Assembly: GCA_017961685.1 (NCBI GenBank)
Contig: JAGCWW010000084.1
Coordinates: 8,450 to 72,449 of the forward strand
From: Acholeplasmatales bacterium
GTDB taxonomy: Bacteria; Bacillota_I; Bacilli_A; Acholeplasmatales; JAEDCM01
Length of the DNA stretch: 64,000 bases
Direction of reading: 5' to 3'
Below are positions 9,713-64,000 of the stretch, piece after piece; within the stretch, counting starts at the first letter, position 1; each line of letters starts with the position of its first letter. A program made the position numbers and the translations under genes. The notes beneath the pieces were generated by a model. It was not told the DNA's origin and did not search any database. It saw nothing but the letters and a program-made list of their open reading frames with translations.

Positions 9713-9747
9713 AATCCCAACATCTCCTTTACGGGGGTGCTGGGATT
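9713..9747 (+). promoter_or_regulatory. 7-bp hairpin presenting the YnTACGn motif in its loop
   Basis: aatccca (9713-9719) pairs with tgggatt (9741-9747). The loop is acatctcctttacgggggtgc. It lies between the stop at 9702 and the ATG at 9760. Confidence 0.6.
9723..9737 (+). repeat. YnTACGn motif copy (intergenic)
   Basis: tctccttTACGGGGG, followed 7 nt later by ATTAAACTTAAT (9745-9756). Confidence 0.9.
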
Positions 9748-20590: not shown

Positions 20591-20719
20591 ATTTAACTAT
20601 ATTTTTTAATATTTAAAAATCATCATAAAACGATTTTATTTTCAAATAGTTATAATTGTTCACAAGGCTTAAAATAAGCCAAATTTAGCCGATATGAACA
20701 GGAAAAACGGCATAGTCGA

Positions 20720-20751
20720 TTTGCATACTTAGATAAAATGTTTTATCTTTG
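20720..20751 (+). promoter_or_regulatory. Bacteroidota-type promoter (TTTG-N20-TATCTTTG)
   Basis: TTTG at 20720-20723 and TATCTTTG at 20744-20751. This is the best consensus match in the window, about 227 nt upstream of the ATG at 20978. Confidence 0.6.
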
Positions 20752-20821
20752 TCATTGTTAATCATAGTAATAAATATTATATTATTATAATTATTAATAA
20801 ACAAAGAGTTAATTATAAGAA

Positions 20822-20834
20822 CCCCCGTAAAGGA
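20822..20834 (-). repeat. YnTACGn motif copy (intergenic, left member of inverted pair)
   Basis: CCCCCGTAaagga. Confidence 0.9.
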
Positions 20835-20922
20835 CTGTGAATGTTGCTTTTCGTTTTGTTTACAGATTAGTTATGATTATTTTGGTTAATAATGTTTTAT
20901 TTAGTGTATTTATTATCATCCA

Positions 20923-20936
20923 CCTCCTTACGGGGG
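20923..20936 (+). repeat. YnTACGn motif copy (intergenic, right member of inverted pair)
   Basis: cctcctTACGGGGG, followed 7 nt later by ATTAAACTTAAT (20944-20955). Confidence 0.9.
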
Positions 20937-20977
20937 TTTTATAATTAAACTTAATCCTTATAATTTAATATATAAAG

Positions 20978-21664
20978 ATGGCTAGCATTTCTCAAATAGT
21001 TTCTGAATTTGCTCATAGTGTTGGACAACCTAACAATAAAGCACTTAGAGAAAATATTAAATCTTTAATTATTCACACTCGTAATGAAATTATACGAAGA
21101 AGTTATGAGAATCATGGATATATAGATAAAGGTTTAGTTCAAAGATTTAAAGTTAGTTTAATTACAGTAAATGACGGAGAAGTTATATTGCCTGAAGGTA
21201 TAGAAGATACAGACATTGATAAAATTCTTCGTACAGAACAACAAGTTCCAAGACCTGTTAGATTAACTAACAATCTTCCTTTTGATAGAGTTAGTACTGT
21301 TGGGTTTAAAACTAATTTAGAAATTCCATTTATAAAAGAAACTACTGCAAGATTTAGAACTTTTGTTCCTGGTTTAAAAGGACTTCCTTGTTATGATTAT
21401 ATTAACGGGTTTATTTATGTATTTCCAGCAGATAATAGACCTCTTTCTTTTGGTAAACTAGTTATAGAATCTGCTTTTGAAAATCCTACTCCTATAGAAA
21501 TCGCTAATGGTACTATATCAGAGTGGGATTCTTTTATGGATACTAATGAATGGCTTTTATCTGAAGATATGATTGGTCAAATTAAAGATATTATTTATAA
21601 AAGAGATTTACTTAATCAATATAGAGAAACAAATGAAATACCTGCGACTGTAAAATTTAATTAA
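20978..21664 (+). CDS. tail/adaptor-module structural protein, function unknown
   Basis: 228-aa ATG ORF, the first gene after the promoter and leader. Confidence 0.6.
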   Translation: MASISQIVSEFAHSVGQPNNKALRENIKSLIIHTRNEIIRRSYENHGYIDKGLVQRFKVSLITVNDGEVILPEGIEDTDIDKILRTEQQVPRPVRLTNNLPFDRVSTVGFKTNLEIPFIKETTARFRTFVPGLKGLPCYDYINGFIYVFPADNRPLSFGKLVIESAFENPTPIEIANGTISEWDSFMDTNEWLLSEDMIGQIKDIIYKRDLLNQYRETNEIPATVKFN

Positions 21665-45700: not shown

Positions 45701-48700
45701 CATTTATGATGCAAGACGGTGTTCGTAGAATTGTTGATGCTTATAATTCTACTAATTCTATTTATCAAGAAAGTAGAGGAAATTATATCAACAAAGCTAT
45801 TCGTGATATAGCTAGAGAATTAGGAATGAATATTTCTGGAGTTTCCAATATATTAGATGTTATATCTGCTCTACAAAAAAGATTTGGTGCTGATTTTGCT
45901 AAAATATTTGGAAAAGATGCAGAAATAACTCTTAATGATGATAAGATTGCTCAAACTGCTATAGATGGAGAACAACTTCAAGATGAAATATTAACCCCCC
46001 GTAGGGGAAAGGATAAACTTCTTTTTGATTTAGGAGTTATACTTCAATATTCTAAACTTAGTCATTTTGGAAATTCTATTACTGCTCTTACTAGAGTTTG
46101 TAATCCTGATAAGTTTGGTGCAAAACAAACAATCTTTGCAACAAATAAAATCTTTGATGACATAAAAGATATACTTAATAGTGATAATCCTATTCCTCTT
46201 GAAGTTAAAAGAACAAATTTCCTTGAAGCTATTTATCCTGATGTAGATAAAACTCTTGATGATTTTATTACAGCTCCTAGAAAAGAATCTGCTTATCCTT
46301 CTCTTTATAATTTCTTAAAATATGCTACTGCTACAAGTATTAAAATTAATAGAAGTTTGTTTACTACACAATCTCCTGAATTTATTAATGCTGTTCGTAG
46401 CATAGAAAGACTTTTAAGTGATAATGGTAAACTTACAGAGAAACAATATAAAGACATTGAGAAATACATCATTGGTCATCTTTATAATACTTGTCAAAGT
46501 ATTATGCGTCCTCTTACTTTCGCGGTCAATGGGGATATTGGGTTTGTACCTATTGCGTTAGAGAATGAAAATAGTCTTTCTCAGCAACAAATGTTTGATG
46601 AAGAACGTCGTCGTATATTTGGATATGGTGCTTCTCCAGAAATAAAACTTGAAGTTGCTAATGTACATGAGCCTACTCAAGATGAAGTTAATGCTTTTGC
46701 AAAGTTAACTCCTGCTCAAAAAGTTGCATACATTCAAGGACATTTTTCTAGTGCCGGTGTATTTAATTATATTCGTACAAATTTATTTAATGAGCGTGCA
46801 GCTAGAAGAACTGGAGCTAGTGGTCAAACTATTGAATTTATTGATACATTAGTAAATGTTGAAGATGTATATCAAGCTTTTGTTAATGCCTTTTCTAGTA
46901 CTAATCCTTTGGTAGCTTTAACTGCTTATGATGTTATTAAATATGCATTTGCTGTTGAAGGTTATAAACTTAAGAGAAATGGTGTTAGCAAAATGATTCC
47001 AAATAGTGTTCTTTATAATGACTTCGGAATATATGGAACAGGAATTGTTCAAGAATTAGATGGAAAAGTTCGTAATATTGGTAAAATATTGGCTGATGAT
47101 ATAGAAAAGATTCAAGAAGATTATATTAGAGGTCATAATATGTATCAAATTCCATCTATTAAAGTTCAAAAACCTAAAGGTAAAGGATATGAACTTGTTT
47201 CAAGAAGCAATGGTATTATTCAACTCGGAAAAGATGACGATAGTATTGCTATAGCTGAAAAGTATAGGATTGTTTATAGACGAGGACAAAACGAAGCTCC
47301 TACGGCAAATGCTTATGTTAGATTAACATTCGGCAAAAGAACTGCTCTGTATAAAATAGATGAAAGAAATAATTCATATTACTTATATCCTCTTAATAAT
47401 CTTGAAGAGAATGAACATGGAGAATTTAGTTCTAATGTAGGAAATAATGTATATCCAAAAGAAGATTATTATCTTAGAATTATTAATGAGTATGAATCTC
47501 AATTCTATGATTTTGATGCTAGTAAATTTAGAGAAATAGCAGATAAATATGATGTTGAAGAATTTAAAGCACCAAAAGAAGAAAAAGTTAAAATCAGTCA
47601 TGCTGCTAAAGAATTTAGTCTTGAACATCCAGCAGATAATATGATAGGTGCTGTTGATAAACTTAAGAAAGATGTACAAAGACATTTTGGCGATGAAGAA
47701 CTTAATAATCCTCTATATATTATAAATGCAGGTTTACATAATGCTATAACTCATCCTGGTTATGCTAATGGTACTACTAAATTATTTACAATTAACAAAG
47801 GAACTGCTAATGAAAGAGTTGTAAGACTTAATGTTTATGGTTTAGAGTATAGTATTCTTGAAAGACTTGCAAATAGGTATCTTGATAAAAATACAGGTAA
47901 ACAAATTAGTAAAGGCGATGAAAAATATACTAATATAATAAAATTCTTTAGAGATAATGGTATTGTTAATATTTCTAAAAATCATCCAACTGTTTTTGTA
48001 GTAAGACCTGCTGCTATTGAAGATGATGGTTTACGTAGGTCTAGTCTTGTTGAAACTGGTACTACTGCTTATAAAGCTATAAATCGTAGATTATCATCTG
48101 TTGAAGATGAAGCTGCAATTAACGCTAATCAAAGACTTAGAGATAAAGGTATTACAACTGATAAGAATTCTGTTGCTAATCATATTGATGAAGTAATTAG
48201 AACAACTGCTGAATATGTTGCAACTGTAACAGAAAAAACTGTTAATGGCCTTAAGTATTTTGCTGAAGACCCAAATGGTAATGGGTATTTATCTGTAACA
48301 GACCCTGGTGTAATTGATTTAATTAAAAACGATCCTGCTCTTATAAGAAAGTTCCTAAAGATTATTCTTGATGCTGAGGCTATTGTAAGTAATTTTAAGA
48401 CTATAAATGAACTTGATATTAAATCTCAAGACCCTGAACTTCAAAGATATCTTAATAAGATTAAAGAGTGTGTCAATGATTTACAAAATAATGCTTTAAT
48501 TCGTGGTGCTAAAGAATTATTTGCAAATAATTATCTTGCAAAGCTAAGTAGTGACCCTCTTATTCAACAAGATATTCTTAACATTCTTGATGGTTATCAT
48601 TCTACAAATTCATTTACTGCTTGGGTTAATGACTTACAAGAAACAACTAATCCGTTTATTCAAGTTTTAAGTAAACAAGTAATCGCTGATATTAGAGCTA

Positions 48701-51700
48701 AAGAATTTGAAGCTGTTCGTAGAGTTCGTGCTTGGCAATCATTTGTAAAAGGAATTAAAGCTAAAGCTGCTGCAGCAGGTAAAACTATAAATTGGGATAA
48801 TATCATTGATGAAGACGGTAGATTTATTCAAGAATATACTCAATCTTTAGTAGATGATATGAATCAAATGCGTGATGCTATTGCATCAGCTAAAGCTACT
48901 TATGGAGAAGGAAGTATTGAACACCTTGAAGCTCAACTTAAATACAATAAGTGGAAACTTGAACATATCAATCAAGAACTTGAAGATGACTATTATCGTA
49001 AGAGAATAGAACTTGATGAAGCTATGCTTCATGGTGTAAGAACTTCTTACATAGATGAAAGAACTGGAATGGTTGTTGAAAGTGAAGAACTTAGTGGAGG
49101 TTATCCAATAGTATTCACTGAATATAAGAAACTTGAAGCTAGACGTAGAGATATTTTAAGTCATGTAGTAAATGGAGTTCTTGATGATTATTGGAAACAA
49201 CAATTAGATGAAGTTAATAGTAAAATAAATGATTTAACTAATCAACTTTATCATGATCCTGTTACTGGTGATCTTATTAGTCGTACAGAATATGATAAAT
49301 ATTTAAATCCTGTTTCTGGTACCGAAGAAGAAAAACGACAAAAACTTCTATATTCTGCTGCTAGTCAAAGAGCTATCGCTAAATACATAAAAGATGTAAG
49401 AGAACTTAATACTGAATATTATGGTTATGATGTAGAATTTGGTTTTGAAGAGGAACTTCAGAGAAATCTTCATATAGTTGAAAGCTATGAGAAGCGTGAT
49501 GCTAATGGAAACATTAGTACTCCTATGAACTTACTTATGGAAAATGATGAGTATGTTCGTGCTAAAGAATGGCTTGCTTCTAACGCTAGATTTGTTGTAT
49601 CTCTTGCTGATGATTCAGAACTTGCTAGAAAACTTAATGAGGCTTATAATGTATTAAGAAGAAGTGATAATACTAAAGAAAATTCTTATGGTCTTGTTAT
49701 AGCTAGAAAAGCTAAAGACAGAAATGCTTATGATAATCGTGGTGTAATAGACGGTACAAAGTTTACAGATGACGATATAAAAGCTATCAAAGCTGACCAA
49801 CAAGCAGCATATAGTTTCAGAGAAGATGCTCCATTCTCGGATAAGGGACTTATAAGCAATGCTTCTCCTACGGGGGAGATATATACATCTGAGTTCTACA
49901 AAGGTATGACTTCTAATGGTACTTCTAATCCAGAATGGATTAAAAAAGTACATGAAATAAATGAACTTCTTGCTCCATACTATGATAATGGTACTAAAAC
50001 TATTAGATTTGACCTTATACCAAACACTGACGAGGGCAGAGCTGTTTATACTAAACTTGAACAACTTTATAAGGATTTAGCCGAAATTAAGAAAACAGTT
50101 GATGGAGATAATGGTAAAGAAATTGCACAATTTATTGAAAAGAACGTTGATTTTAACATCGATAAAGATGAATTTAATAAACAAAAAAGTCTTGCTGAAG
50201 AAAAAGGTAAACTATATTATAGTTTCTGGGTTAAAGCTAATATGGAAATAGTTGATGATGAAGCTGTTCCAAATCATTATATTTATGGTTACACTACACC
50301 TAAAGCAGAAATTAAAGAAAAGTATTTAGATAAGAAAAAGACTGAAGCTCTTCAACTTATTAATAAAATTTATACTACAGTACCTACGGAATACTATTAT
50401 CAAAAAGTTCAAGAAGTTAAACAACAAGGCAAAGAAGCTTATGATAAATGGTATCATGAAAATCATATTTATAATCCATATACTCATACTTATGAACCTC
50501 TTCGTTGTTGGACTAAAAGAACATTCAGAGATACTTCTTCTGCTGTAGGTAAATGGGAAGCTGCAATGAGTAAAAGAACTAGAAAAGCAAAACAAGAATA
50601 TATTAATCCTAATTATAAACCTGAAGTAGGTAATGCTCTTAATTATAAGAAAGGTAGTGGATATGATAATTCTAGAATAAACGATGCAAATGAATTTGAA
50701 AATGAACTTAAACTAGAAATGCAAAAACTTCTTTCTGACCTTGTTAAAACTAAATTTGGAAGAAGATTTATTGATAAAGGTTATCTTCCTGTTAGACGTA
50801 AAGCAGAAGAGCATGATGCTAAGTTTTGGGGAAAAGAACTTCTTAAAACTATCGGTTGGGTTGAAGGACATTCTGGTGAAGAACCTTTCTATGAGGATTT
50901 AGATTATGCTAGAGATAAAACTATTTCAATGCCTATGCTTTCTCTTATTGGTCAAAAAACTCTTGAAAGTTTAAATATAAAAGAACCAAAACGAGAAGAA
51001 TATAATACTGACGCTGAGTATGCAGCTGCTGTAGATAAGTATAATAAAGATGTTGCAGAACTTAAAGAAAATAATAAGCAAGCACATCAGGATGCTATTG
51101 ATAGAAATTGGGAAGAAGTTATAAAAGATTTTATTCTTCAAGCTTCTCATTTCAATGCAGTTCAAGATAACAAATATATGCTATTCTATGGAAAGTCTAT
51201 GCTTGAGAATATGGGTGTTTATCAAAGAAGATATGGTTTCTTTGGAGATTATAAGAAAGACTATATAAATTCTGATGATACTACAACTGAATATATCAAG
51301 CGTAAAGATGAAAATCTTCTTAAACAATATGAAAATTGGATTCGTAGAATAGTTTATGACCAGTGGAAAGAGTCTAATGGAATGTTTACTAAATGGGCTT
51401 CTAGACTTCAAAGTATAACATCTGCTCAATACATGATGATGAATATTAGAGGTGGTATTGCTAATGTTACTTTAGGTGAAACTAACATTCTTGCTGAAGC
51501 TTTTGCTAAAGAATACTTTGGAACAAAAGATTGGCTTGCAGGTAAATCATATTGGATGGCTGGTATTCCAAGTTATTTTGCTAATGCACATAAACCAATT
51601 TCTACTAGTGTTGCAGACGCTATTATTAAATTCTTTAATGTAGTTGACTTTGATGAACTTACTGGTAAATCTAGAATTATAGAGAATCCTGTTAGTGAAG

Positions 51701-53115
51701 GAATGAGGAGATTTACAGGTGCTATGTATAGTCCTCAAAATATTGGTGAAAACTTCATGCAAAATGGTGCTATGTTTAGTATGATGATGAGTCATCGTCT
51801 ATATGAAATAGAAGACCCTGAAACTCATGAAAAGACTATTGTCTTTAAGAATGAACATGAAGCTATGCGGGATGCAGAAATTCAAGCTCTTAGAGATGTT
51901 ATTAAAGATTCCCCCTTAGAGGAAAGATTTAATGATTTCATTAAAAATATTAAAGAAGATGCCAATAAGATGAAAGATTATGCTTGGCGAAGAAAAGATT
52001 TTATAACTCAATTTGCTAAACAATATCTTACTAAAGCACAACAACAAGAATATGTTACTAAACGTAAGGCTCGTCAAGTTGAATATAAACAAGAGTTTTA
52101 TAATGATGAAGCTCATCCTAGATTAATTGACCAATTTGCTCTTGGTGATGACCAACAATTAAGTTTCAAGAAAGATAGCAAACTTGCAGAATATGATATT
52201 CCTAATCAAAATGGTGAACCTAGTGAAGCTTATAAACTTCTTGCAAACTTTAGAGGAAGAGTTATTTCTGTAAACAAAAAGATACATGGTATTTATGATA
52301 GACTTGGTCAAGCACAACTTGAAAAACTATGGTATGGTAGTTTAGTTATGCAATATCATAAACACATGTATACAGGAATACTTAAACGTTGGAGAAGAGA
52401 AGGTTCTTATAATGAAGAAAGAGGTACTATTGAAAAAGGTTGTTATATAGCTCTTATGGACTTCCTTGCAACTCCTTGGCAACAATATAAAGAAAAACTT
52501 GGTATGAATGATGCTCAAGTTGAAACTATGGAAGGAACTCAAAATCTTCTTGGAGAAATAGTTGATTTTGTTACAAACATTCAACTTAATTGGAATCTTC
52601 TTCCTGAACATGAAAGAGCTAATATTCGTAGATGTCTTGGTGATGTATGTGGTGTTCTAAGCGCATTATTTATGGCTATTGCACTTCGTGCTATGATGGA
52701 TGACGATGATGAAGATAGCATCTTATTCAATCTAGGTCTTTATGAAGCTGATAGACTTGCATCTGAAAGTTTCCAATTTAATCCTCTTGGTATGTATAGT
52801 GAAGCAAAGAAACTTTGGAGTACTCCTATTGCTGCTCAAAGCGGATTACAAGATATTATACAAAGTTGTGGACTTCTGTCTAAAATGATTATTGAAGGAG
52901 AAGATTTTGACCCTTATTATCATAGTGGACGATTTGCTGGAGAACATAAGTTAAGTGTATATGTTCAACGTCGTATTCCAATTTGGAGAGGCATTAAGAC
53001 TGGATTTATTGATATTGTAGATAGTAATTCATATTACAAAATGGGAGATAATATGCTTGGCATACTTCCTGTAAATCATTGGTCTAATCTTATTAAAGGT
53101 GTAGAGGATAAATAA
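39721..53115 (+). CDS. giant virion-packaged RNA polymerase candidate (crAss-like two-barrel RNAP fusion protein)
   Basis: 4464-aa uninterrupted ORF. GYRIPTEGKQS...TGSDFDIDSVYG carries the aspartate triad DFDID at 44737-44751 (aa 1673-1677), which resembles the NADFDGD metal-binding motif of double-psi-beta-barrel RNAPs. It is the last gene of the virion block, as in crAss-like phages. Confidence 0.55.
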   Translation: MDCIFSVDISKSKALQALKDYCGENSEQFLTYINSVVKEQAADGSLVPSAHFVEWWKQRFKNEPNFNAGTGSQMRDRIIRYFKEIKGDVESTYRDGATAQILSTYGYTSPSSRDFCKRITANYVLDAYKKNRYILIKDPQVYKDIQDAIKEQGAKTFYFNIAFDKLREELAIRILKAQGISNPSDDDIDNILDIIEDGNRKYVEDALGGKNISVENSNLIAVVYEFQTSPASFVEEVSRDSRLYKIFNKDDEFDDNNQPDAEGENNPENEADEDNEDFLNTTISMYDHTGTYTSAMMHVDGGIRAYLSSLKKLNSGVGLDKNQPDLDLNNPLGIADTMNTDECVTILYHYGNYDNVDSMIESIKAIANNIPGFAAFHQLAKDLEADSDIAYQFYTTFGKTIISKVETTVKGSITRTRISNNRSNKLEALGFEFMNSVKTTAIDTDLDFATDELANLRDRLKTTKQEILKSLDNKFRKAAIAELAKQLRRYYPTISDYAVENYINNHKENGITVDVDKNFGNLITILENTIKYSEGTKIEYENRQLDINEAYNHNRSLERKQLETNAYVPASAFIDLAPLYAKPYITKEQKGTALELAKALVDYSLVRVENNSRTIHGNQSSDVINNSYITNILKTLQNDTSLANYGKYRANSHQYDFSRIMIEHVEDGVVVNKGLFRYNDDGELVQTEYAKDLLKINLFNGASNLDTDTNVAYNQMSQGDYIGTGFINFFNAEDKTTANYFMRVPSDAPRNFSIKAPRYSIAGLFSIANQSEVTAAKSAIRKKVTEKGLVEDAIDWGVNDKPFDIYYSDQAIRHMTSDAGEVSVKLPDFVKGNKNYKEGEEITVKFKYKSDNAEDNRDVYLIRGTVENGRIVNGTFLGVIGNNFSSELSDAFDRYTDRTLERQGIIKYAINRNHSLFKQFRNAFKQELLDAAVGINKFFVTNDDGLVQRYSENEAKMLGVEEKAIKWKDGVSKNGREVSGAYENYHHKKGKIVEKKEGKETLVGNVFHSDRFVIFDKNDNEVRNYGEELLEEVFSLLYGGDDNTYLHFTKNADGSVKRVNLTDTQQEAVDNKIEEFIVNYIEQGFNRLSNVEGSLKGTELTHNTAAEFLLNYHMMYINFNDLFEGDTKFYGTSRDFLKRAKEVQGSGVPYGLVEYNANLGADKTEVTRSILTGTVFANGYKVKQYNKFSAVTVVNTIMTNESAIKTLRNKLIKDCKLSEEDADGLLAGYTQGTKVNDAQSYITFDEWIRRIAARGQLMRYKPLIDKILNEEELNAEELSEFVQVQKNFYYDQYYDKNAGVLVPRQIKNAEFVLIPQLIKGTELEAVAAIMNKYDIDQLNTVETTKAGKTDILEIFDAKTGEVKQDIIDEVNGKGISSFGKKATAASELFSYNYLYTQQETPQHVNTENKAGIQIMKKILDNSTPDSKLWETKQRFFRLYSANIRDSFQNLMQELNLEVDENGNLVLEEDADGNKTIKGLNVELFCQRLKEECMRLGLDSNMLDYVTLDATRMAENGFNTIMPNYMSMVSQKLESIAQSLFNSRITRQKLPGFHAAQITNVGFKALASSKEQVSYSKELKYHQDENGKYVPYVEIMLPASAFGFKRTNEDETLKTKEELLKELQDAGLDEIIGYRIPTEGKQSVCRMKVVGFIDDAYGSTIVVPNDWVTQTGSDFDIDSVYGIQFETYIDKEGHIRKTEKIDDLEILYKSYVLKHLTKEERIKAFEDAKAGEAVINEIKNRNKDEDTNYFNREKFIAELKQYSTEALFGVLEDIAEEKGLKSFEEYSKEDIDELNSRASRNNGILQCMLDILGSNEALEENLSRSNFDDITNAIIKNMSAKAKLERENRSAYNFLDQAAYQEDAMSGARLKGYSVTRDTFCSICNTVRPTISKQHQVKVVYSTDMISYNKAVERFGKENVEKQGDDKIVITHDRLGWTNDNKNVVGKILTAYSSQTTAHILDAIKEGAVPNVNELTFAVFKIFPDLGIDYDTAVAFMMQDGVRRIVDAYNSTNSIYQESRGNYINKAIRDIARELGMNISGVSNILDVISALQKRFGADFAKIFGKDAEITLNDDKIAQTAIDGEQLQDEILTPRRGKDKLLFDLGVILQYSKLSHFGNSITALTRVCNPDKFGAKQTIFATNKIFDDIKDILNSDNPIPLEVKRTNFLEAIYPDVDKTLDDFITAPRKESAYPSLYNFLKYATATSIKINRSLFTTQSPEFINAVRSIERLLSDNGKLTEKQYKDIEKYIIGHLYNTCQSIMRPLTFAVNGDIGFVPIALENENSLSQQQMFDEERRRIFGYGASPEIKLEVANVHEPTQDEVNAFAKLTPAQKVAYIQGHFSSAGVFNYIRTNLFNERAARRTGASGQTIEFIDTLVNVEDVYQAFVNAFSSTNPLVALTAYDVIKYAFAVEGYKLKRNGVSKMIPNSVLYNDFGIYGTGIVQELDGKVRNIGKILADDIEKIQEDYIRGHNMYQIPSIKVQKPKGKGYELVSRSNGIIQLGKDDDSIAIAEKYRIVYRRGQNEAPTANAYVRLTFGKRTALYKIDERNNSYYLYPLNNLEENEHGEFSSNVGNNVYPKEDYYLRIINEYESQFYDFDASKFREIADKYDVEEFKAPKEEKVKISHAAKEFSLEHPADNMIGAVDKLKKDVQRHFGDEELNNPLYIINAGLHNAITHPGYANGTTKLFTINKGTANERVVRLNVYGLEYSILERLANRYLDKNTGKQISKGDEKYTNIIKFFRDNGIVNISKNHPTVFVVRPAAIEDDGLRRSSLVETGTTAYKAINRRLSSVEDEAAINANQRLRDKGITTDKNSVANHIDEVIRTTAEYVATVTEKTVNGLKYFAEDPNGNGYLSVTDPGVIDLIKNDPALIRKFLKIILDAEAIVSNFKTINELDIKSQDPELQRYLNKIKECVNDLQNNALIRGAKELFANNYLAKLSSDPLIQQDILNILDGYHSTNSFTAWVNDLQETTNPFIQVLSKQVIADIRAKEFEAVRRVRAWQSFVKGIKAKAAAAGKTINWDNIIDEDGRFIQEYTQSLVDDMNQMRDAIASAKATYGEGSIEHLEAQLKYNKWKLEHINQELEDDYYRKRIELDEAMLHGVRTSYIDERTGMVVESEELSGGYPIVFTEYKKLEARRRDILSHVVNGVLDDYWKQQLDEVNSKINDLTNQLYHDPVTGDLISRTEYDKYLNPVSGTEEEKRQKLLYSAASQRAIAKYIKDVRELNTEYYGYDVEFGFEEELQRNLHIVESYEKRDANGNISTPMNLLMENDEYVRAKEWLASNARFVVSLADDSELARKLNEAYNVLRRSDNTKENSYGLVIARKAKDRNAYDNRGVIDGTKFTDDDIKAIKADQQAAYSFREDAPFSDKGLISNASPTGEIYTSEFYKGMTSNGTSNPEWIKKVHEINELLAPYYDNGTKTIRFDLIPNTDEGRAVYTKLEQLYKDLAEIKKTVDGDNGKEIAQFIEKNVDFNIDKDEFNKQKSLAEEKGKLYYSFWVKANMEIVDDEAVPNHYIYGYTTPKAEIKEKYLDKKKTEALQLINKIYTTVPTEYYYQKVQEVKQQGKEAYDKWYHENHIYNPYTHTYEPLRCWTKRTFRDTSSAVGKWEAAMSKRTRKAKQEYINPNYKPEVGNALNYKKGSGYDNSRINDANEFENELKLEMQKLLSDLVKTKFGRRFIDKGYLPVRRKAEEHDAKFWGKELLKTIGWVEGHSGEEPFYEDLDYARDKTISMPMLSLIGQKTLESLNIKEPKREEYNTDAEYAAAVDKYNKDVAELKENNKQAHQDAIDRNWEEVIKDFILQASHFNAVQDNKYMLFYGKSMLENMGVYQRRYGFFGDYKKDYINSDDTTTEYIKRKDENLLKQYENWIRRIVYDQWKESNGMFTKWASRLQSITSAQYMMMNIRGGIANVTLGETNILAEAFAKEYFGTKDWLAGKSYWMAGIPSYFANAHKPISTSVADAIIKFFNVVDFDELTGKSRIIENPVSEGMRRFTGAMYSPQNIGENFMQNGAMFSMMMSHRLYEIEDPETHEKTIVFKNEHEAMRDAEIQALRDVIKDSPLEERFNDFIKNIKEDANKMKDYAWRRKDFITQFAKQYLTKAQQQEYVTKRKARQVEYKQEFYNDEAHPRLIDQFALGDDQQLSFKKDSKLAEYDIPNQNGEPSEAYKLLANFRGRVISVNKKIHGIYDRLGQAQLEKLWYGSLVMQYHKHMYTGILKRWRREGSYNEERGTIEKGCYIALMDFLATPWQQYKEKLGMNDAQVETMEGTQNLLGEIVDFVTNIQLNWNLLPEHERANIRRCLGDVCGVLSALFMAIALRAMMDDDDEDSILFNLGLYEADRLASESFQFNPLGMYSEAKKLWSTPIAAQSGLQDIIQSCGLLSKMIIEGEDFDPYYHSGRFAGEHKLSVYVQRRIPIWRGIKTGFIDIVDSNSYYKMGDNMLGILPVNHWSNLIKGVEDK
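40337..40346 (+). repeat. decayed YnTACGn motif copy
   Basis: gctttaGGGGGt. It lacks the C of TACG and has a weak pyrimidine tract. Confidence 0.35.
42821..42841 (+). repeat. YnTACGn motif copy
   Basis: tttctctcctcTACGGGGGGG (7 G), read as L-L-Y-G-G-D. Confidence 0.9.
45995..46013 (-). repeat. YnTACGn motif copy
   Basis: CCCCCCGTAggggaaagga, read as T-P-R-R-G-K. Confidence 0.9.
49862..49876 (+). repeat. YnTACGn motif copy
   Basis: cttctccTACGGGGG, read as S-P-T-G-E. Confidence 0.9.
51911..51926 (-). repeat. decayed YnTACGn motif copy
   Basis: CCCCCTTAgaggaaag, with G changed to T in the GTA. Confidence 0.45.
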
Positions 53116-53150
53116 TAATTTATAATTATAACAATTCATAATATATTTAT

Positions 53151-53183
53151 AAGAGTCTGTCGTGAGATAGGCTCTTATTTTTG
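53151..53183 (+). terminator. rho-independent terminator of the virion block
   Basis: aagagtct / aggctctt 8-bp stem (one G.U pair) with a 10-nt loop, followed by atttttgttt. Confidence 0.7.
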
Positions 53184-53217
53184 TTTATGTATCGAATGTG
53201 GCGCTAGTAATAAGGAT

Positions 53218-53257
53218 AAAAAAAAGAGATACAACCTATCTTCGCAGATAAGTTGTA
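53218..53257 (-). terminator. rho-independent terminator (minus strand)
   Basis: tacaacctatct / agataagttgta stem (11 of 12 bp) with loop tcgc. On the minus strand it is followed by tctc and T8. Confidence 0.7.
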
Positions 53258-53324
53258 CCAACACACATAACTTAAAACATATATAATAGTATTTTATTTA
53301 ATATTTAAATTTTAATTCTAAGAC

Positions 53325-53402
53325 CTTATTTTCTGATTCCTTGCTTATTATATTACTTTATAGTTTTAAGGCAATACAAAGCAAAAGGAACAGAAAAATA
53401 AG
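53325..53402. repeat. long imperfect inverted repeat containing the 18-nt element (copy 2)
   Basis: cttattttctgattccttgc (53325-53344) against gcaaaaggaacagaaaaataag (53381-53402). The 18-mer is at 53383-53400. Confidence 0.6.
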
Positions 53403-53470
53403 ATTTATAAATAACACAGGAATAATCATTATTTTATCGAAGAATTAAAATAAAATATTAAACAAAATAA

Positions 53471-53502
53471 AATAACTCCCAGTTTCACAACTAAGAGTTA
53501 TT
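53471..53502 (-). terminator. putative terminator of the minus-strand block
   Basis: aataactc / gagttatt 8-bp stem with a 16-nt loop. On the minus strand it is followed by ttattttgttt. Confidence 0.5.
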
Positions 53503-53568
53503 AACATAATACAATGATTAACAATCAAAGTAATTACCAATAATTAAACAAAAATCATGAAAATTATA

Positions 53569-54434: not shown

Positions 54435-54557
54435 TTAACATTCTAGTATTATATTTTTGTTCATCATCAGGATGATATTTTGGATTTTATTTGATAAACA
54501 CAATTCCTTACAATCATCACAATGAAAATCTTTATCATCAAGAACCTGTTGAGCCAT
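54435..54557 (-). CDS. small Cys-containing hypothetical protein (40 aa)
   Basis: ATG ORF MAQQVLDDKDFHCDDCKELCLSNKIQNIILMMNKNIILEC that overlaps the dUTPase stop. Confidence 0.25.
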   Translation of the reverse strand: MAQQVLDDKDFHCDDCKELCLSNKIQNIILMMNKNIILEC

Positions 54558-54972
54558 GACCACCTGTACCACGTTCACTAGAAGATAATGTTTCTACTTC
54601 AGTAAATACTATTTGAGGATAAGGAAGAATCATAATTTGACCAATACGGTCTCCAATAGCATAAGGCTGCATATCAATCATAAGAGCATCTCTATCTTTA
54701 AATGTAAGCATGATTTCACCACGATATCCGCTATCAATTATACCTACATGATTAGTAAGATAAGCAGAAGTTTTACGATTACTACTACGAGGAAAAACAA
54801 GTCCTACATATCCTTCAGGAATTTCAATAGCAAGACCTGTACCATAAATGTGATTTTTATGATTTTCGTCATATTCGTAAGAAGTAGCAGTTAAATCCAT
54901 TCCAGCATCACCTTTTTTAGCATAAGAAGGAATTACTGCATTTTCATTAAGTTTTTTAATTTTAACAATCAT
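54538..54972 (-). CDS. dut: dUTP diphosphatase (trimeric dUTPase)
   Basis: Canonical motifs are present: GDAGMDL, VFPRSS, GIIDSGYRGEI, GDRIGQM and SERGTGGHGSTG. Confidence 0.9.
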   Translation of the reverse strand: MIVKIKKLNENAVIPSYAKKGDAGMDLTATSYEYDENHKNHIYGTGLAIEIPEGYVGLVFPRSSNRKTSAYLTNHVGIIDSGYRGEIMLTFKDRDALMIDMQPYAIGDRIGQIMILPYPQIVFTEVETLSSSERGTGGHGSTGS

Positions 54973-55492
54973 TTTTATTTGTTTTAATTAAATAGTTTAT
55001 ACTACCATTATACATATAAGCAGGATTTACAAAATATTCATATTTACTAAACATTGTATCATTTTCATAACCTTTAATTGTACACATACGACGAAGTATT
55101 GCGTTAAGCGATATTTGTTCTTTTTCTTCTTCTGTCTTTGCAGCATCTATTTCATCTTTAAAACAAAGAATATTAATGGCTTTTGTAACATCTCCTGGAA
55201 ATACACCAGTTTCTTGAGAAATATCTTTATTTATAAGTTCGATAACTGTTTGATTGTAAACAAGATGTTCTGTAATATAAGTTACAACTTGTCTAACATA
55301 TTTAGGTTGGGTTTCAAGAAATGATAGAAGTTTAGTTCCAATAGTTATACTGTTAGGCATATATTTAATAGTTTTACGATATTGAGTTCCTTCATCATCT
55401 TCATCTATAAATGTAACTCTTTTTAGAAATAAATTACAATTAATTCTTTTACCTCTTTTTACGTTTATCGTATAAATAGGTGTATATTTCAT
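54962..55492 (-). CDS. hypothetical protein, possible winged-helix DNA-binding/initiator-like protein
   Basis: ATG at 55492 (MKYTPIYTINVKRGKR). The track extends to a TTG at 55552, but that extension overlaps direct repeats. It is downstream of an iteron-like region, and the function is a guess. Confidence 0.5.
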   Translation of the reverse strand: MKYTPIYTINVKRGKRINCNLFLKRVTFIDEDDEGTQYRKTIKYMPNSITIGTKLLSFLETQPKYVRQVVTYITEHLVYNQTVIELINKDISQETGVFPGDVTKAINILCFKDEIDAAKTEEEKEQISLNAILRRMCTIKGYENDTMFSKYEYFVNPAYMYNGSINYLIKTNKNDC

Positions 55493-55532
55493 ACATTTAT
55501 CAATTATTTTATTACATAAGACAAAGATACGC

Positions 55533-55575
55533 ATTTTTAGTGAATACACCAAATTTTTAGTAAAAAATTAGTAAA
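55533..55575. repeat. short direct repeats ATTTTTAGT x2 and TTAGTAAA x2
   Basis: atttttagt at 55533-55541 and 55553-55561. ttagtaaa at 55557-55564 and 55568-55575. Confidence 0.7.
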
Positions 55576-55620
55576 TAGACAAAAAATAAGCCTTATAACT
55601 AATTGTAAACCAACCACATA

Positions 55621-55655
55621 AAAGTCTAATATAAAGGTTATAGCAAAGTCTAATA
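55621..55655. repeat. 11-nt direct repeat AAAGTCTAATA x2 (24-bp period)
   Basis: Copies at 55621-55631 and 55645-55655. Confidence 0.8.
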
Positions 55656-55710
55656 ACACCATATTTAATAATATCAATTTTATATGTATTAAGATAAGTT
55701 AGAATATATC

Positions 55711-55727
55711 TATCTCCTTTACGGGGG
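55711..55727 (+). repeat. YnTACGn motif copy (intergenic, left member of inverted pair)
   Basis: tatctccttTACGGGGG. Confidence 0.9.
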
Positions 55728-55778
55728 TGTTTTAATAAACAATATCTTGTATTACATTAATAAAGTTTTGCTCTCAAT

Positions 55779-55796
55779 CCCCCGTAAGAGGAGATA
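55779..55796 (-). repeat. YnTACGn motif copy (intergenic, right member of inverted pair)
   Basis: CCCCCGTAagaggagata. Together with 55711-55727 it forms a 17-bp inverted repeat with one bulge. Confidence 0.9.
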
Positions 55797-55827
55797 GTGA
55801 TATATGACTTTTACTATATTATTGATA

Positions 55828-56895
55828 TTAAGCAGCATTTATAAGTTCATAAGCTTGATTTAAGGCTTTATTCATAACATTATTAGCATTACCATATAAT
55901 ATACTATCCATACGTTTAGTTCCTGATAGATTAGCAACATTAGAATAAAAACCTGTAACAGCATTATAAGCACCCCAAGAAGTACCAGCTATTTCTTTTT
56001 GACCAACACCATCCATATAATATTCAAACATATTTACAATTTGATTTATCTTACGAGTACTTATACCAGTGCGTTCCATTGTAAGATAATCTCTTGCATA
56101 TAGTTTTTTATATCCATTTTTTTCATCAAATAGATTAAGCTGTGTAATTTCAGCTTCAGTAAGATTTAAATCAGCAAGATACTTCATAACTTGTTCATCA
56201 GAAACTTTTATATTAGCAAGAGCTTCATAAAGTTGTTTAGCATCTTCAGCATAATTACAAGCTATTTTAAGGATTTCACTACCTTGTTGTAATCTTTCTT
56301 TAATTGTCTTTGTATGACGAAGTCTAATATAAGAATCTGCTTTGTTAAAAGCAGCATTTAAACAATTAGTACAAAATACTCTAACAGGTGTAAATAATAT
56401 GTTTATGCTGCAACTACCATCATGAGAATTGCTAAATACAAGATAATTATCAACAGGATCATGATTCACATCAAAAGATACAGGAATTTTTGCAGAAACA
56501 AATATACGTTGACCATAACCAAACATTCCAGCATATTGCCAAATAGCTTTATCAGGTCCAATTGCATCATTAAAGAAATTAAAAGCATCTACATTTTGAA
56601 CAACTTCATATTTATCTTTAACAACGCCTAAAGGTATATTTTCGTCTGTACGATAAGTAGCATACCCGTTAGGACAAGGTCTATAAATATTACCGCTTTG
56701 TGCAAATTCTCCGTTTCTTGTATCAATTATATTACTACCATTAAGATTAAATGGCATTTTTGCATATAATTCGCATTTTTCAACAGTAAAATTAAGGCCT
56801 GCTTTTTCCATAACTTCTTTAGATGTAGTACAATCTGAAACATCTACACCAATACCGTGACTCCAAGGAAAGCCGTTAACTGTATATTTACTCAT
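55828..56895 (-). CDS. DUF932 / TIGR03299-like phage-plasmid protein
   Basis: 355 aa. The N-terminus FPWSHGIGVDVSDCTTSKEVMEKAGLNFTVEK matches the remembered DUF932 pattern (PWHGLG...AGLDWTVEK). Confidence 0.55.
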   Translation of the reverse strand: MSKYTVNGFPWSHGIGVDVSDCTTSKEVMEKAGLNFTVEKCELYAKMPFNLNGSNIIDTRNGEFAQSGNIYRPCPNGYATYRTDENIPLGVVKDKYEVVQNVDAFNFFNDAIGPDKAIWQYAGMFGYGQRIFVSAKIPVSFDVNHDPVDNYLVFSNSHDGSCSINILFTPVRVFCTNCLNAAFNKADSYIRLRHTKTIKERLQQGSEILKIACNYAEDAKQLYEALANIKVSDEQVMKYLADLNLTEAEITQLNLFDEKNGYKKLYARDYLTMERTGISTRKINQIVNMFEYYMDGVGQKEIAGTSWGAYNAVTGFYSNVANLSGTKRMDSILYGNANNVMNKALNQAYELINAA

Positions 56896-58311: not shown

Positions 58312-59333
58312 TGTTGCATATTTTTTAGAAAAATATTAAATTCTTTAAGTAATTTATCTGCTACAAGTTTTGCATTTGGATGAGGAGCACCGCTTACTCC
58401 TTCTGAACGAAGTTTAAAGAAATGCTTCCAATCATCTTCAAATGCAGTATGAATTAGTTGAGATTTTGTTGCAAGAGGAAGAACCTCTCTAGCCATTTGT
58501 GCAGTCCAGCCTTTAGCAATAAGCATATTATAACACCATTGAGAAAAAGTAATAGAACAAAGATAGAAATCCATATCACACCACGTATTAACAATTTCAT
58601 TATCTTCTTGAGATAAAATACCTTGAGCATAGTCACCAACAGTATCATAAGTATGTCCTTCTAAATAAGGAAGATGTTCTTCGTCTAAAAACCAAGCAGG
58701 AAGTCCTATTTTAAGTTGACCATCATTCCTTTTATTATAATTACAATATCTTGTACTCTCTTCTGCAATAGAATCAACTCTATGACGATTAAATTCACGA
58801 GAAACTCCTATATTAGTAATAAAAGATACAGTAATACGTTTGATATGATAAACAGTTGGAGCACAAATGAATTGAATATCATCAAGCCAATTATTTTCTA
58901 TTATTACTCTAAAATTAGTAGTTATATAAGTTCTACGAACGGCTTTATTATCTTTTGTAATAATTGTTATTGCTTTAGAATAATTATTTGTTCTGTATTT
59001 TGCAGCAATATGTCCTACAACATCTGACCAATTATAATGTGCAGTAAATAGCGCTGAAGGATAATTAAATGATTTAAATGCATTCTCTGGATTAACTTCG
59101 AGATATAAATAAACCGTTCCATTTTCAAGTACAGATAAATGATTAGCTTCACTAGACCAAGGTTCTTTACGAAGAATAACTCTTTTTACAAAATCTTCAT
59201 CAGTTTCCTTATTATCTTTCTTTTCAGATTGATAACAAACACGAGTACAACGAGCAATATGTTTATACATATCTTCTACGGGATTATCATATTTTTGTTC
59301 CCATATTTCAAATGATGGTCTTATAAGTTCCAT
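58308..59333 (-). CDS. thyX: FAD-dependent thymidylate synthase
   Basis: ThyX signature RHRxxSxxxxSxR is present as FNRHRVDSIAEESTRYC. The protein is 341 aa. Confidence 0.85.
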   Translation of the reverse strand: MELIRPSFEIWEQKYDNPVEDMYKHIARCTRVCYQSEKKDNKETDEDFVKRVILRKEPWSSEANHLSVLENGTVYLYLEVNPENAFKSFNYPSALFTAHYNWSDVVGHIAAKYRTNNYSKAITIITKDNKAVRRTYITTNFRVIIENNWLDDIQFICAPTVYHIKRITVSFITNIGVSREFNRHRVDSIAEESTRYCNYNKRNDGQLKIGLPAWFLDEEHLPYLEGHTYDTVGDYAQGILSQEDNEIVNTWCDMDFYLCSITFSQWCYNMLIAKGWTAQMAREVLPLATKSQLIHTAFEDDWKHFFKLRSEGVSGAPHPNAKLVADKLLKEFNIFLKNMQQ

Positions 59334-62091: not shown

Positions 62092-62577
62092 TTATTTAAT
62101 ATTAAATTTAAGTAAATTAAGTTTAGCAACTTTATTAGCAAGTTTAATCTCTTTAGCAGTAGGTTCAATATTATTCTTCTCCCTACGGGGGGTTGATTGT
62201 TTTGTAGTTCCAGACTTACTTTTAGCTTTTGGTTTACATGCATCATAATCTACAGGAGGAGTAGTCTTTTCAAATTCTAAATTAGCCTTGTGTTGAGTAA
62301 GAAGATTATTAAACCATGTATCCCTATCAGATTCATCTACATAAGTATTGATTGTATAAACTATTTCTGTGATAGCCCTAACATAAATATAACTTATTGT
62401 TTGAATTGGTCTTAAACCATCTTCCCAAACTTTACTTGCATTTAATGAAGCAATACTTAAATGAAGAAATTTATCTAATCCTAGTCTGCTAATTTCATGA
62501 GGAATATAATTAATCATAAAATTATCTGGTTCTTCGATATACCTACTAAGACATTTTAATTGTTCTGGTATAGTCAT
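62092..62577 (-). CDS. hypothetical protein
   Basis: 161-aa ATG ORF with a basic C-terminal tail. Confidence 0.6.
   Translation of the reverse strand: MTIPEQLKCLSRYIEEPDNFMINYIPHEISRLGLDKFLHLSIASLNASKVWEDGLRPIQTISYIYVRAITEIVYTINTYVDESDRDTWFNNLLTQHKANLEFEKTTPPVDYDACKPKAKSKSGTTKQSTPRREKNNIEPTAKEIKLANKVAKLNLLKFNIK
62174..62192 (+). repeat. YnTACGn motif copy
   Basis: ttcttctcccTACGGGGGG, antisense to ORF 62092..62577 (codons S-T-P-R-R-E-K). Confidence 0.9.
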
Positions 62578-63055: not shown

Positions 63056-64000
63056 AAATTAAAGTTTCTTTAATAAATTGATTAATAACATCTATTGAAT
63101 ATATATCGTGTAAGTCTGCAAAGTCTTTAGCTTTATAATTATATAAACCAAATTCTCCTCTAGTTATAAAAAGATATGGTATATTGTAAGTTTCTTGTAA
63201 GTACTTAGCACCATGTCTACCAGCTTTATCAAAATCTAATAAACTTAATATTATACCACTAGGCGTAAGTTTATTGAGTAAATAATCATATTCTTGTTGT
63301 GTAAGTTTATAACTTTCACTAGGAAGGTTTACAACTCCTATATTAAGTTTATTTCCAGCTCCCCCGTAAAGAAGATGGTTAGCTAAATGTGAACCTATAC
63401 TAAGTCTATCTTTGCTGCTTTTAGTAATAAGTATATAATCATAATTATCAAGTTCTAAATTTAATAAACCTTCTATTACATTACAATTAGTAATAAATTT
63501 TTGTTCTCGTTTATTTCTATCTCTTAAAGGAAAATAAAGTTTAATAAGATAAATTCCAGCTCTATTTTGACCAAGCATATAAGCATAACAAGGATCTTTA
63601 ATATTATATTTATATACAGGTTCACTATTAATACCTCTATTTACATAATATTGGTCAACAGCAAAAACAAAGTGAGTATTAAGGTATTGAAGGTTAATAC
63701 CCCAATGTTCCCATATATTTTTATCTTGTTTATTCCAACTTCTTGGAAGAAATTCAATAATAGCTTTATGCTTTTGACCTTTTCTAAGTGCGTCTTGTAT
63801 TATAGAATCTATATTTTCATCTATTTCTTTTCCATCTATTATATTACTAAAAGTTTCAGCAATATGTTTAAGTATGAAATAAAAATCTTGTTTATTATTA
63901 GGTTCTATTTTTCTATTATATACAAGGCTTAATACATGTGCTACAACATCATACACATCACCAAAAAAGCCAAAACCTCCAAAATCTCTAACTTTTAATC
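62982..64000 (-). CDS. DnaG-like primase (Toprim domain), 5' end beyond the window
   Basis: The frame stays open to nt 64000; the track start at 63956 is a GTG. Toprim-like ILITKSSKDRL and LDFDKAGRHG (DxD) are present. Confidence 0.5.
   Translation of the reverse strand, partial: LKVRDFGGFGFFGDVYDVVAHVLSLVYNRKIEPNNKQDFYFILKHIAETFSNIIDGKEIDENIDSIIQDALRKGQKHKAIIEFLPRSWNKQDKNIWEHWGINLQYLNTHFVFAVDQYYVNRGINSEPVYKYNIKDPCYAYMLGQNRAGIYLIKLYFPLRDRNKREQKFITNCNVIEGLLNLELDNYDYILITKSSKDRLSIGSHLANHLLYGGAGNKLNIGVVNLPSESYKLTQQEYDYLLNKLTPSGIILSLLDFDKAGRHGAKYLQETYNIPYLFITRGEFGLYNYKAKDFADLHDIYSIDVINQFIKETLIYVRIKYETNDDYSYANYEGLLYVE
63361..63375 (-). repeat. YnTACGn motif copy
   Basis: CCCCCGTAaagaaga. It is sense to the primase ORF, where it is read as L-L-Y-G-G-A. 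Confidence 0.9.

Follow-up and report, generated by a model that had tools for sequence, protein, structure and literature searches.

An inverted motif pair upstream of a RepL-like gene in a crAss-like phage, tentatively read as an origin-like cassette with priming sites

The oriV of the IncQ plasmid RSF1010 combines an initiator gene, binding repeats, an AT-rich stretch and an inverted repeat with the signals ssiA and ssiB on opposite strands, and in phage P1 the operator Op53 is located upstream of repL. The crAss-like phage p-crAssphage (Carjivirus communis) has been proposed to be P1-like, and its origin was predicted by Schmidtke et al. from Ori-Finder and nanopore coverage (PMC10983915). 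On the level of priming, synthesis by DnaG primases begins opposite the central base of d(CTA) or d(TTA) and yields pppAG primers (PMC2978363). In T7, a 10-nt 3′ flank contributes to primase binding, the strong priming sites group into ~14 clusters at intervals of 1-6 kb, and the sites primed first, one on each strand, are separated by ~100 nt (PMC12839067). The locus compared with these systems here is an inverted pair of a short motif in the non-coding gap between a DUF932-family gene and a RepL-like gene, both on the minus strand of a 64,000-nucleotide stretch of contig JAGCWW010000084.1, hereafter the window. The window belongs to a crAss-like phage of the family Intestiviridae with a G+C content of ~30%; its best DNA matches are cr271_1, cr8_1 and p-crAssphage, with an identity of only ~65-70%, and its gene order and orientation are those of cr271_1. 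The gap measures 335 bp (55493-55827) and not ~275 bp as initially annotated.

The gap is best explained as the upstream control region of the RepL-like initiator gene. Together with the motif pair and the AT-rich spacer enclosed by it, this gene appears to form a conserved cassette that is plausibly related to an origin. A more specific reading, in which the cassette is RepL-associated and origin-like and the motif serves as a preferred start site for RNA priming, is put forward tentatively, as a real possibility that falls somewhat short of being probable.

The left arm of the pair (55711-55727) is a motif copy read on the minus strand, CCCCCGTAAAGGAGATA, the plus strand reading TATCTCCTTTACGGGGG and then TGTTTTAATAAA. 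The right arm (55779-55796, CCCCCGTAAGAGGAGATA) carries the C-run strand on the plus strand, possesses a core that is invariant in relatives, and is located 31 nt from the stop codon of the DUF932-family gene (55828-56895, minus strand; Pfam DUF932 with E 5e-45, PHROG 1221). The initial annotation had described both arms, the single bulge between them and a 51-nt AT-rich spacer, all of which are found as described; the spacer (55728-55778) has 80% A+T. The arms are part of an extended inverted repeat (55704-55803) with 24-nt arms of 75% complementarity, which could form a long hairpin or a cruciform. By itself the exact 9-bp inverted core is unremarkable, an equally long one being found within the gap in 72% of dinucleotide shuffles. 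As RNA the pair folds far better than shuffles, with -36 and -39 kcal/mol (z -5.2 and -4.6) and a hairpin that is strong on either strand, and as single-stranded DNA it reaches -21.7 kcal/mol (z -7.3 against shuffles). A chance origin of the inverted pair is excluded. Beyond the pair follow ~155 bp of AT-rich DNA (a 157-bp stretch with 80% A+T) holding two weak direct repeats, such that an AT-rich element and repeats are found next to an initiator gene, the combination expected of an iteron-type origin, with the RepL-like open reading frame (ORF) located downstream.

Both arms are copies of a motif that is spread over the entire window. Its core CCCCCGTA is the most over-represented 8-mer, with 18 exact copies compared to 0.17 expected from base composition, and every copy is followed by a tail of six purines (purine at 107 of 108 positions). 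Copies are found on both strands, roughly one per 4 kb, in intergenic as well as in coding DNA. Coding copies account for ~70%, are placed in at least five of the six reading frames and encode LLYGG, SSTGG, PPVE, TPRRG and other peptides. Most copies reside deep inside long genes, far from promoters and without relation to gene starts, while the intergenic ones usually follow a stop codon by 8-38 nt. Relative to the genes the orientation is 11:7, ~37% of the copies being antisense to the local gene. The spacing of the site clusters is more even than random in three genomes (coefficient of variation 0.42-0.47, P 0.0007-0.0011). The interpretation of the inverted repeat as a locus-specific operator is not supported, as the pair in the gap is one pair among the 18 copies of a genome-wide motif, the majority of which reside within genes.

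Conservation of the motif extends to p-crAssphage, cr271_1 and crAss002 as well as to many uncultured relatives, and contigs L001-L007 carry it too; in the distant DUF932-bearing contigs L009-L011 it was not found. The consensus is aGCTCCCCCGTAGAAGARATG in cr271_1 (19 copies) and CCGCCCCGTAGAAGRT in the L003 type (7 copies in 21 kb). Two further genomes each harbor a class A, with the consensus ACYCCCCGTAGAGGATGGA in p-crAssphage (16 copies) and TTCCCCCGTAAAGGRG in crAss002 (14 copies), and a class B, with the consensus CCCCGTGGAGGATGG in p-crAssphage (15 copies) and TTCCCCCATA(A/G)AGGAG in crAss002 (15 copies). The flanks are uniform within one genome and different between lineages, and their joint change within a lineage implies one sequence-specific reader, encoded by the phage and co-evolving with its sites. 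Most sites of the window are orthologous with sites of cr271_1, and the copies in the giant gene are found at relative positions of ~0.23, 0.47 and 0.75 in both. At the C-terminus of the DUF932 protein, contig L001 reads LLYGGAN, which corresponds to a motif copy, where the window reads ILYGNAN without any insertion or deletion; at least one copy has consequently arisen by substitution and not by insertion. Literature searches for the motif strings and for repeats or motifs of crAss-like phages retrieved no description, although their coverage is incomplete and novelty is thus not proven; in the searchable literature a conserved genome-wide motif in Intestiviridae is not described.

Several observations on the motif family stand on their own. 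The copy in the primase gene is kept at the same place in every lineage examined (p-crAssphage 16626, cr271_1 78007, crAss002 74263, L001 1464, L004 2592) and overlaps the conserved codons for YGG...LNIGVVN. The two classes are one transition apart: p-crAssphage (BK010471; L012/L013) carries CCCCGTGGAGGATGG (15) beside CCCCGTAGAGGATGG (16), and crAss002 (MN917146; L103/L104) carries CCCCCATA(A/G)AGGAG (15) beside CCCCCGTA (14), whereas the window contains a single class only. In crAss002 the classes favour opposite strands, the G-strand being sense in 11/14 copies of class A compared to 4/15 of class B. A degenerate copy in L005 (13372) and in L006, with the G-strand CTCCTACGGGCGGCAGAGC, matches the universal segment 338-356 of 16S rRNA (ACTCCTACGGGAGGCAGCAG) over most of its length; the likeness of the motif family to 16S rRNA (helix 14, CUCC-UACG-GGAG) was judged to be a coincidence.

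The pair itself is conserved as a unit. When the gap was aligned with those of relatives whose homologue of the 176-aa RepL-like protein (ORF176) is 98%, 78% and 51% identical, only the two arms were invariant. Among the repeats of the gap, the inverted pair is hence kept at all three distances and the direct repeats are kept in the 98% relative only. Scanning viral contigs for TACGGGGG-N30-60-CCCCCGTA yielded at least 80 loci, many of them on unrelated G+C-rich contigs, and only the AT-rich crAss-like loci were used. Among the matches listed, the pair is positioned directly 3′ of DUF932 wherever the flanking genes are identifiable, in the order Gam, DUF932, pair, (RepL-like), dUTPase, and the spacer measures 22-61 nt.

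The gene downstream of the gap (54962-55492, minus strand, 176 aa), initially noted as possibly encoding a DNA-binding protein, does appear to encode one, namely a winged-helix protein that is probably a diverged member of the RepL replication-initiator family. Its family profile aligns with p-crAssphage gp88 in hhalign (93.4% probability, E 2.4e-7), phmmer and hidden Markov model (HMM) links tie it to gp43 and gp88, and these two proteins both pass Pfam RepL (PF05732). There is no direct match in PHROGs, and close homologues number only ten. According to the family HMM, a RepL-like ORF follows directly after the pair in the window, L014, L016 (two copies), L020, L001, L023, L026, L089, L080 and L003; none was detected in cr271_1, L069, L086, crAss002, L005 and L007. 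The two tandem ORFs of L016 (2476-2991 and 3001-3408), one of the L001 type and the other a shortened window type, suggest turnover or exchange of RepL cassettes at this locus.

A close parallel is provided by p-crAssphage, in which two similar, apparently paralogous modules are found, one upstream of each repL gene (28077-28210 upstream of gp43; record 95742-95890 upstream of gp88, there followed by two 28-bp direct repeats). Each module consists of a GC-rich element, a C-strand motif, ~90 nt of AT-rich DNA, a G-strand motif and a GC-rich element containing GCGAAGC. As in the window, AT-rich DNA is enclosed by an inverted pair from the same motif family, with a RepL-family gene downstream and direct repeats nearby. 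In contrast to the window, the arms have the opposite orientation with purine tails pointing in and C/G runs pointing out, the spacer extends to ~90 nt instead of 51 nt, and the arms are flanked by GCGAAGC elements, which the window does not have. The gp88 module falls into the intergenic region of the published predicted p-crAssphage origin (PMC10983915). Furthermore, some relatives possess their own two-copy tandem repeats of 24-30 bp at the equivalent place, and lineage-specific tandem repeats between the pair and the RepL-like gene are significant in L016, L020 and L023. The p-crAssphage modules, the published prediction and these tandem repeats lift the origin reading above a guess.

GCGAAGC forms a very stable DNA mini-hairpin. 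At some intergenic motif copies of p-crAssphage and crAss002, a G+C-rich element with the core GGAGCGAAGCG, which contains GCGAAGC, follows within ~15 nt (L012 28195 and 44930-44935; L013 45889, record 95889; L103 4230 and 47861; L104 36193, record 86193), and in L004 the string GGTTGCTTCGCAACC adjoins a motif copy at 12460. Elements of the GGAGCGAAGCG type are not present in the window or in cr271_1. After the stop codon of the giant polymerase-like gene, three relatives show a motif copy followed by a partial inverted copy without the G-run (GTAGAAGAGAT...ATCTCTTCTAC), together an 11-12-bp hairpin (L102 16211, corresponding to cr271_1 66211; L001 16389; L002 13571); the window has an ordinary terminator at this position.

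How the motif could act in priming follows from its G-strand, which as template reads 5′-YYYYYY-(C/T)TA-CGGGGG-3′ in every copy. Of the trinucleotides with which DnaG primases initiate, d(CTA), d(TTA) and d(CTG), one of the form (C/T)TA is accordingly present on the G-strand of every CCCCCGTA(R) copy with the pyrimidine run on its 5′ side, and p-crAssphage class B has CCA in its place. The motif would thus be a preferred start of RNA synthesis on a single-stranded DNA template, most likely of primer synthesis by the phage primase, which is of the DnaG family; searches of the PDB with its sequence and with a profile found nothing. In such an arrangement d(CTA)/d(TTA) would be the initiation trinucleotide and the G-rich 3′ flank the recognition element, and a purine-rich primer, pppA(G/A)RRRR, would be copied from the pyrimidine run. 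Priming over the full length of the genome would be served by the ~15 site clusters, which are evenly spaced and occupy both strands, and were a bubble to open in the AT-rich spacer, the pair in the gap would supply each of its strands with one start site. The RepL-like protein would act nearby, possibly at lineage-specific direct repeats, and the locus would be a candidate secondary origin comparable to the arrangements of pair plus repL in p-crAssphage. Use as priming sites would account for the asymmetry of the motif, its purine-only tail (the primer), its occurrence on both strands and within genes, its even spacing, the co-evolving flanks and the pairs beside initiator genes.

Similar to the priming sites of T7 and of DnaG primases, the motif would offer d(CTA)/d(TTA) next to a cryptic 3′ base, a primer beginning with a purine and an extended 3′ flank in recognition (PMC2978363, PMC12839067). 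Likewise, T7 employs a limited number of strong sites 1-6 kb apart on both strands, with opposed first sites ~100 nt apart at the origin (PMC12839067). Different from these sites, the conserved block of the motif is much longer and stricter (14-20 nt) and is kept at orthologous positions across genera, and the crAss primase is a stand-alone DnaG-like protein whereas that of T7 is fused to a helicase. With the oriV of IncQ plasmids the window shares a layout of an initiator gene with repeats, an AT-rich stretch and an inverted repeat, which in the window would carry the strand-specific signals. However, ssiA and ssiB are confined to oriV, where they serve the archaeo-eukaryotic-type primase RepB', whereas here the motif is genome-wide and the primase of the DnaG type, and the three or more iterons of IncQ compare with two weak repeats in the window.

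A number of points weigh against the combination of origin-like cassette and priming sites. The pair persists without a detectable RepL-like gene in cr271_1, L069 and L086, and crAss002 has the motif with neither a RepL-like gene nor a pair at DUF932. The p-crAssphage pairs direct their purine tails inward, the pair of the window its G/C runs. The direct repeats of the window are weak, ORF176 has no direct Pfam match even at E <= 10, and its AlphaFold2 model, computed from 9 homologues, is poor with a predicted local distance difference test (pLDDT) score of 46. The pair is located 2.6 kb from the convergent junction of the two gene arms, where the GC skew changes sign. If forks move with transcription, ~37% of the sites would be on the leading-strand template. 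The connection between primase and motif is drawn from sequence logic only, and no DnaG-type primase is known to require a site of 14-20 nt. Finally, the published origin prediction for p-crAssphage points to a divergent gene junction and not to the DUF932 locus (PMC10983915). Of the origin layout proposed in the initial annotation, the RepL-like neighbour, the AT-rich spacer and the position of the pair upstream of RepL-like genes in many lineages speak for it, the occurrence of the pair without such a gene speaks against it, and placing the origin of the phage at the DUF932 locus is not borne out by the prediction for p-crAssphage.

The same hairpin could be an RNA element. Accordingly, an ordinary terminator or insulator would be followed by a promoter: the pair would give the Gam-DUF932 transcript a 3′-terminal stem-loop that ends, processes or stabilises the RNA and shields the RepL-like gene from read-through, this gene would be driven by a Bacteroides-type promoter of its own, and the genome-wide motif would act in the form of small G-strand RNA hairpins. 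This explanation is unlikely. In its favour, the stem-loop is strong on either strand, the plus strand contains a terminator-like hairpin with a T-run at 55711-55729, and a spacer that ranges from 22 to 61 nt in relatives varies as a loop would. In the lineage of the window the arms match each other beyond the general motif, the usual distance of intergenic copies from stop codons (8-38 nt) fits a 3′-end element, and G-strand 18-mers fold better than those of the C-strand (-5.6 vs -2.4 kcal/mol). A promoter of the form TTTG-N20-TATCTTTG is indeed found at 55522-55553 on the minus strand, where it is placed before the ATG at 55492 and shares sequence with the ATTTTTAGT repeats. Within the window this pattern is not enriched in total (6 matches vs 5.6 expected), but 5/6 matches are intergenic, in sense orientation and upstream of genes; since the total count equals chance, the matches are supported by placement alone.

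Other points weigh against the RNA explanation. The plus strand of 55711-55729 is antisense to the genes, and on the sense (minus) strand no U-tract follows the stem, the pattern of an intrinsic terminator thus being present on the plus strand only; at its operon ends, by contrast, the phage uses canonical hairpin-plus-U terminators. Approximately 37% of the copies are antisense and most are buried deep in long genes. The G-strand of class A reads YYYC-UACG-GGGG, which would form a UACG tetraloop closed by C-G. The class B motifs of crAss002 (CATA) and p-crAssphage (GTG) destroy this tetraloop, the L003-type variant (GGGCGG) breaks the stem, and the uniform flanks within a genome point to a sequence-specific reader instead of a simple structure. 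A cUACGg tetraloop RNA hairpin was rejected as a general explanation, class B reading UAUG in crAss002 and CACG in p-crAssphage and the L003-type stems being broken.

A sequence-specific reader could also be a conserved DNA-binding protein of the phage, a global regulator or an architectural factor, for which the motif would be the binding site and the pair a bivalent site that controls or insulates the RepL-like gene. The model for this is P1, the lytic replicon of which (repL, oriL, Op53) likewise comprises a RepL-family initiator with transcription regulated from an upstream promoter, and the C1 operators of which are asymmetric sites of ~17 bp that are dispersed through a ~94-kb genome and in part form inverted pairs. 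An asymmetric consensus of 14-20 bp with flanks uniform per genome and differing between lineages, an orientation relative to genes near 50:50 overall, the dispersal and conservation of the sites and the position of the pair upstream of an initiator gene, as for P1 Op53 and repL, agree with this idea. Yet operators of P1 are located at promoters and oriL inside repL, whereas here most sites are in mid-coding positions far from promoters and the motif occurs in phages without detectable repL. Besides, purine-only degeneracy over six positions is unusual for a duplex operator, arm spacings of 22-61 nt are ill-suited to a fixed dimer, even spacing is of no obvious use to a repressor, and no candidate reader protein was found. 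Overall a dispersed operator must be regarded as decidedly unlikely, and the RepL-like protein was rejected as the genome-wide reader, as the motif is present in cr271_1 and crAss002, in neither of which a RepL-like ORF was detected.

The initial annotation offered a more literal model, which takes the direct repeats for iterons and the 17-bp inverted repeat for an operator or origin element specific to this locus, both bound by the 54962-55492 product. The repeats exist as given: ATTTTTAGT at 55533 and 55553 with a 20-bp period, TTAGTAAA at 55557 and 55568 with an 11-bp period, and AAAGTCTAATA at 55621-55631 and 55645-55655 with a 24-bp period. They are mildly above chance and weakly non-random. 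An 11-mer repeated within 40 nt is seen in 2.5% of dinucleotide shuffles, and the gap has 8 pairs of 8-mers vs 1.1 expected (p about 0.007); a 24-nt sliding comparison of the gap detected no significant tandem repeat (P = 0.5). Iterons would consist of at least three tandem repeats of 17-22 bp that are conserved or co-vary with the initiator, whereas here an 11-mer and a 9-mer are each present only twice. The A/T-rich repeats ATTTTTAGT and TTAGTAAA (55533-55575) overlap and flank the -33 element of the host-type promoter described above, and the AAAGTCTAATA pair (55621-55655) is a weak candidate for a repeat bound by the RepL-like protein, kept only in L014/L015. Both AAAGTCTAATA and ATTTTTAGT are gone in the 78% and 51% relatives, and the repeats do not qualify as classical iterons. 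The RepL-like nature of ORF176 and the significant 24-31-bp tandem repeats at the equivalent position in some relatives and in p-crAssphage, once with wider spacing, are in favour of the model. With two short copies that are lost beyond the 98% relative and partly belong to a promoter, and an inverted-repeat sequence that occurs genome-wide, also in phages without a detectable RepL-like gene, it is nevertheless very improbable.

Just as improbable is the assumption that the motif marks another strand-specific event, either a promoter of the giant RNA polymerase with a T7/SP6-like layout (recognition block, TA, purine-rich start) or a site-specific nick comparable to those of T5, phiKMV and tf. 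The layout of CCCCCGTA followed by GAAGAG resembles that of the SP6 promoter, ...CTATA followed by GAAGAG, the consensus is asymmetric and lineage-specific, and in crAss002 the G-strand is sense in 11/14 copies of class A and the C-strand in 11/15 copies of class B. For the virion RNA polymerases of crAss-like phages no promoter is known, which counts for a promoter, and the virion-polymerase promoters of phi14:2, a marine relative, yielded no common motif (bioRxiv 10.1101/2020.03.07.982082). However, the copies are unrelated to gene starts, many would yield antisense RNA, and neither nicks nor polymerase-specific starts in crAss-like phages were found in the literature searched, so that there is little chance of this being correct.

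Repetitive extragenic palindromic sequences and bacterial interspersed mosaic elements (REP/BIME), DNA uptake sequences (DUS/USS) and Chi are, like the motif, short over-represented oligomers on both strands and often in inverted pairs, DUS/USS and Chi being found in genes as well, and Chi in E. coli has a similar density of ~1 per 4-5 kb. REP sequences, including REPINs, are strictly extragenic and moved by RAYT transposases, whereas ~70% of the motif copies are coding in several frames and at least one was made by substitution without insertion or deletion. A Chi-like hotspot, for which a host-determined sequence of 5-8 nt without conserved flanks would be expected, disagrees with the 14-20-nt consensus, the lineage-specific flanks and the orientation of 11:7, in which the skew typical of Chi is not seen. 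Chi and uptake sequences are read by host machinery, for which lineage-specific flanks within a phage family are not expected, and the uptake-sequence reading was rejected on flank conservation, coding location and absence of skew. Two further patterns were set aside: a host-type -7 box (TAAGTTTA) upstream of three copies, which in the primase gene is explained by conserved K-L-N codons, and the rule that no two '+' sites are adjacent in the window and cr271_1, which has little weight given that the sites are largely orthologous and p-crAssphage has a second class.

The initial annotation was also right about three other motif pairs in the window with the opposite arm orientation. One of them (20822-20936; 20822+/20929-) is intergenic, 44 nt upstream of an orthologue of crAss002 gp26, whereas the others are located in a 636-aa gene (28193-28414; 28193+/28407-) and in a 2301-aa gene (36230-36343; 36230+/36336-). 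The intergenic region around the first of them (20590-20978) contains a Bacteroides-type promoter at 20720-20751, the pair ~70 nt further on and TTTTATAATT after the second arm. This layout resembles a leader hairpin or attenuator and recurs in cr271_1 at 31908/31982; the gene that follows shares 47% identity with crAss002 gp26, annotated as a putative integration host factor (IHF) subunit. Single coding copies are found at 3911-3924 (-, orthologous to cr271_1 14929), 11100-11113 (+), 16525-16538 (-), 33375-33388 (-) and 62178-62191 (-), and an intergenic one at 9724-9737 (-), with a stop codon 24 nt before it and an ATG 25 nt after it. The 4464-aa giant gene contains copies at 42826-42839 (-), 45996-46009 (+) and 49863-49876 (-), corresponding to the relative positions 0.23, also occupied in cr271_1, 0.47 and 0.76. 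The copy in the primase gene (63361-63374, +) has orthologous copies in p-crAssphage, cr271_1, crAss002, L001, L004 and L005. Close to the beginning of the ThyX-like gene there is a degenerate copy with a shortened C-run (CCCGTAGAAGAT, 59273-59282, -), possibly a weak site or one in decay.

The minus-strand block of the window encodes thioredoxin, dUTPase, DUF932, a Gam-like protein, ThyX and primase; the dUTPase gene (54538-54972) comes after the RepL-like ORF. On the plus strand the giant ORF (39721-53115) encodes a virion-RNA-polymerase-like protein of 4464 aa. Canonical intrinsic terminators for both strands occupy the convergent junction between the gene arms (53116-53568), at 53149-53178 plus a T-run on the plus strand and at 53471-53502 on the minus strand, and a further hairpin with the loop CTTCGC is found at ~53229-53260. 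At the equivalent place cr271_1 carries a tRNA-Gln; a scan of the window with ARAGORN found no tRNA. Rfam gave no match in the whole window at the gathering threshold and none in 55300-56000 at E <= 1.

The origin-like cassette and its putative priming sites would bear on the origins, priming and phage-specific transcription signals of crAss-like phages, the most abundant viruses of the human gut. That the motif keeps orthologous positions from genus to genus, is embedded within essential genes in several frames and is evenly spaced implies a reader central to the phage life cycle. Intestiviridae may possess a genome-wide initiation code, written into coding as well as intergenic DNA as ~15-30 conserved signals (C-run, GTA, purine run) that are strand-specific and regularly spaced, and read by a co-evolving DnaG-like primase or the giant RNA polymerase, with the inverted pairs beside RepL-like genes as origins; this is conceivable, if rather doubtful. 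With 29 copies in the cultured phage crAss002, the function of the motif is directly testable. The orphan genes of the ORF176 type beside DUF932 would be diverged RepL initiators, which would extend the discussion of p-crAssphage as a phage-plasmid to many more Intestiviridae.

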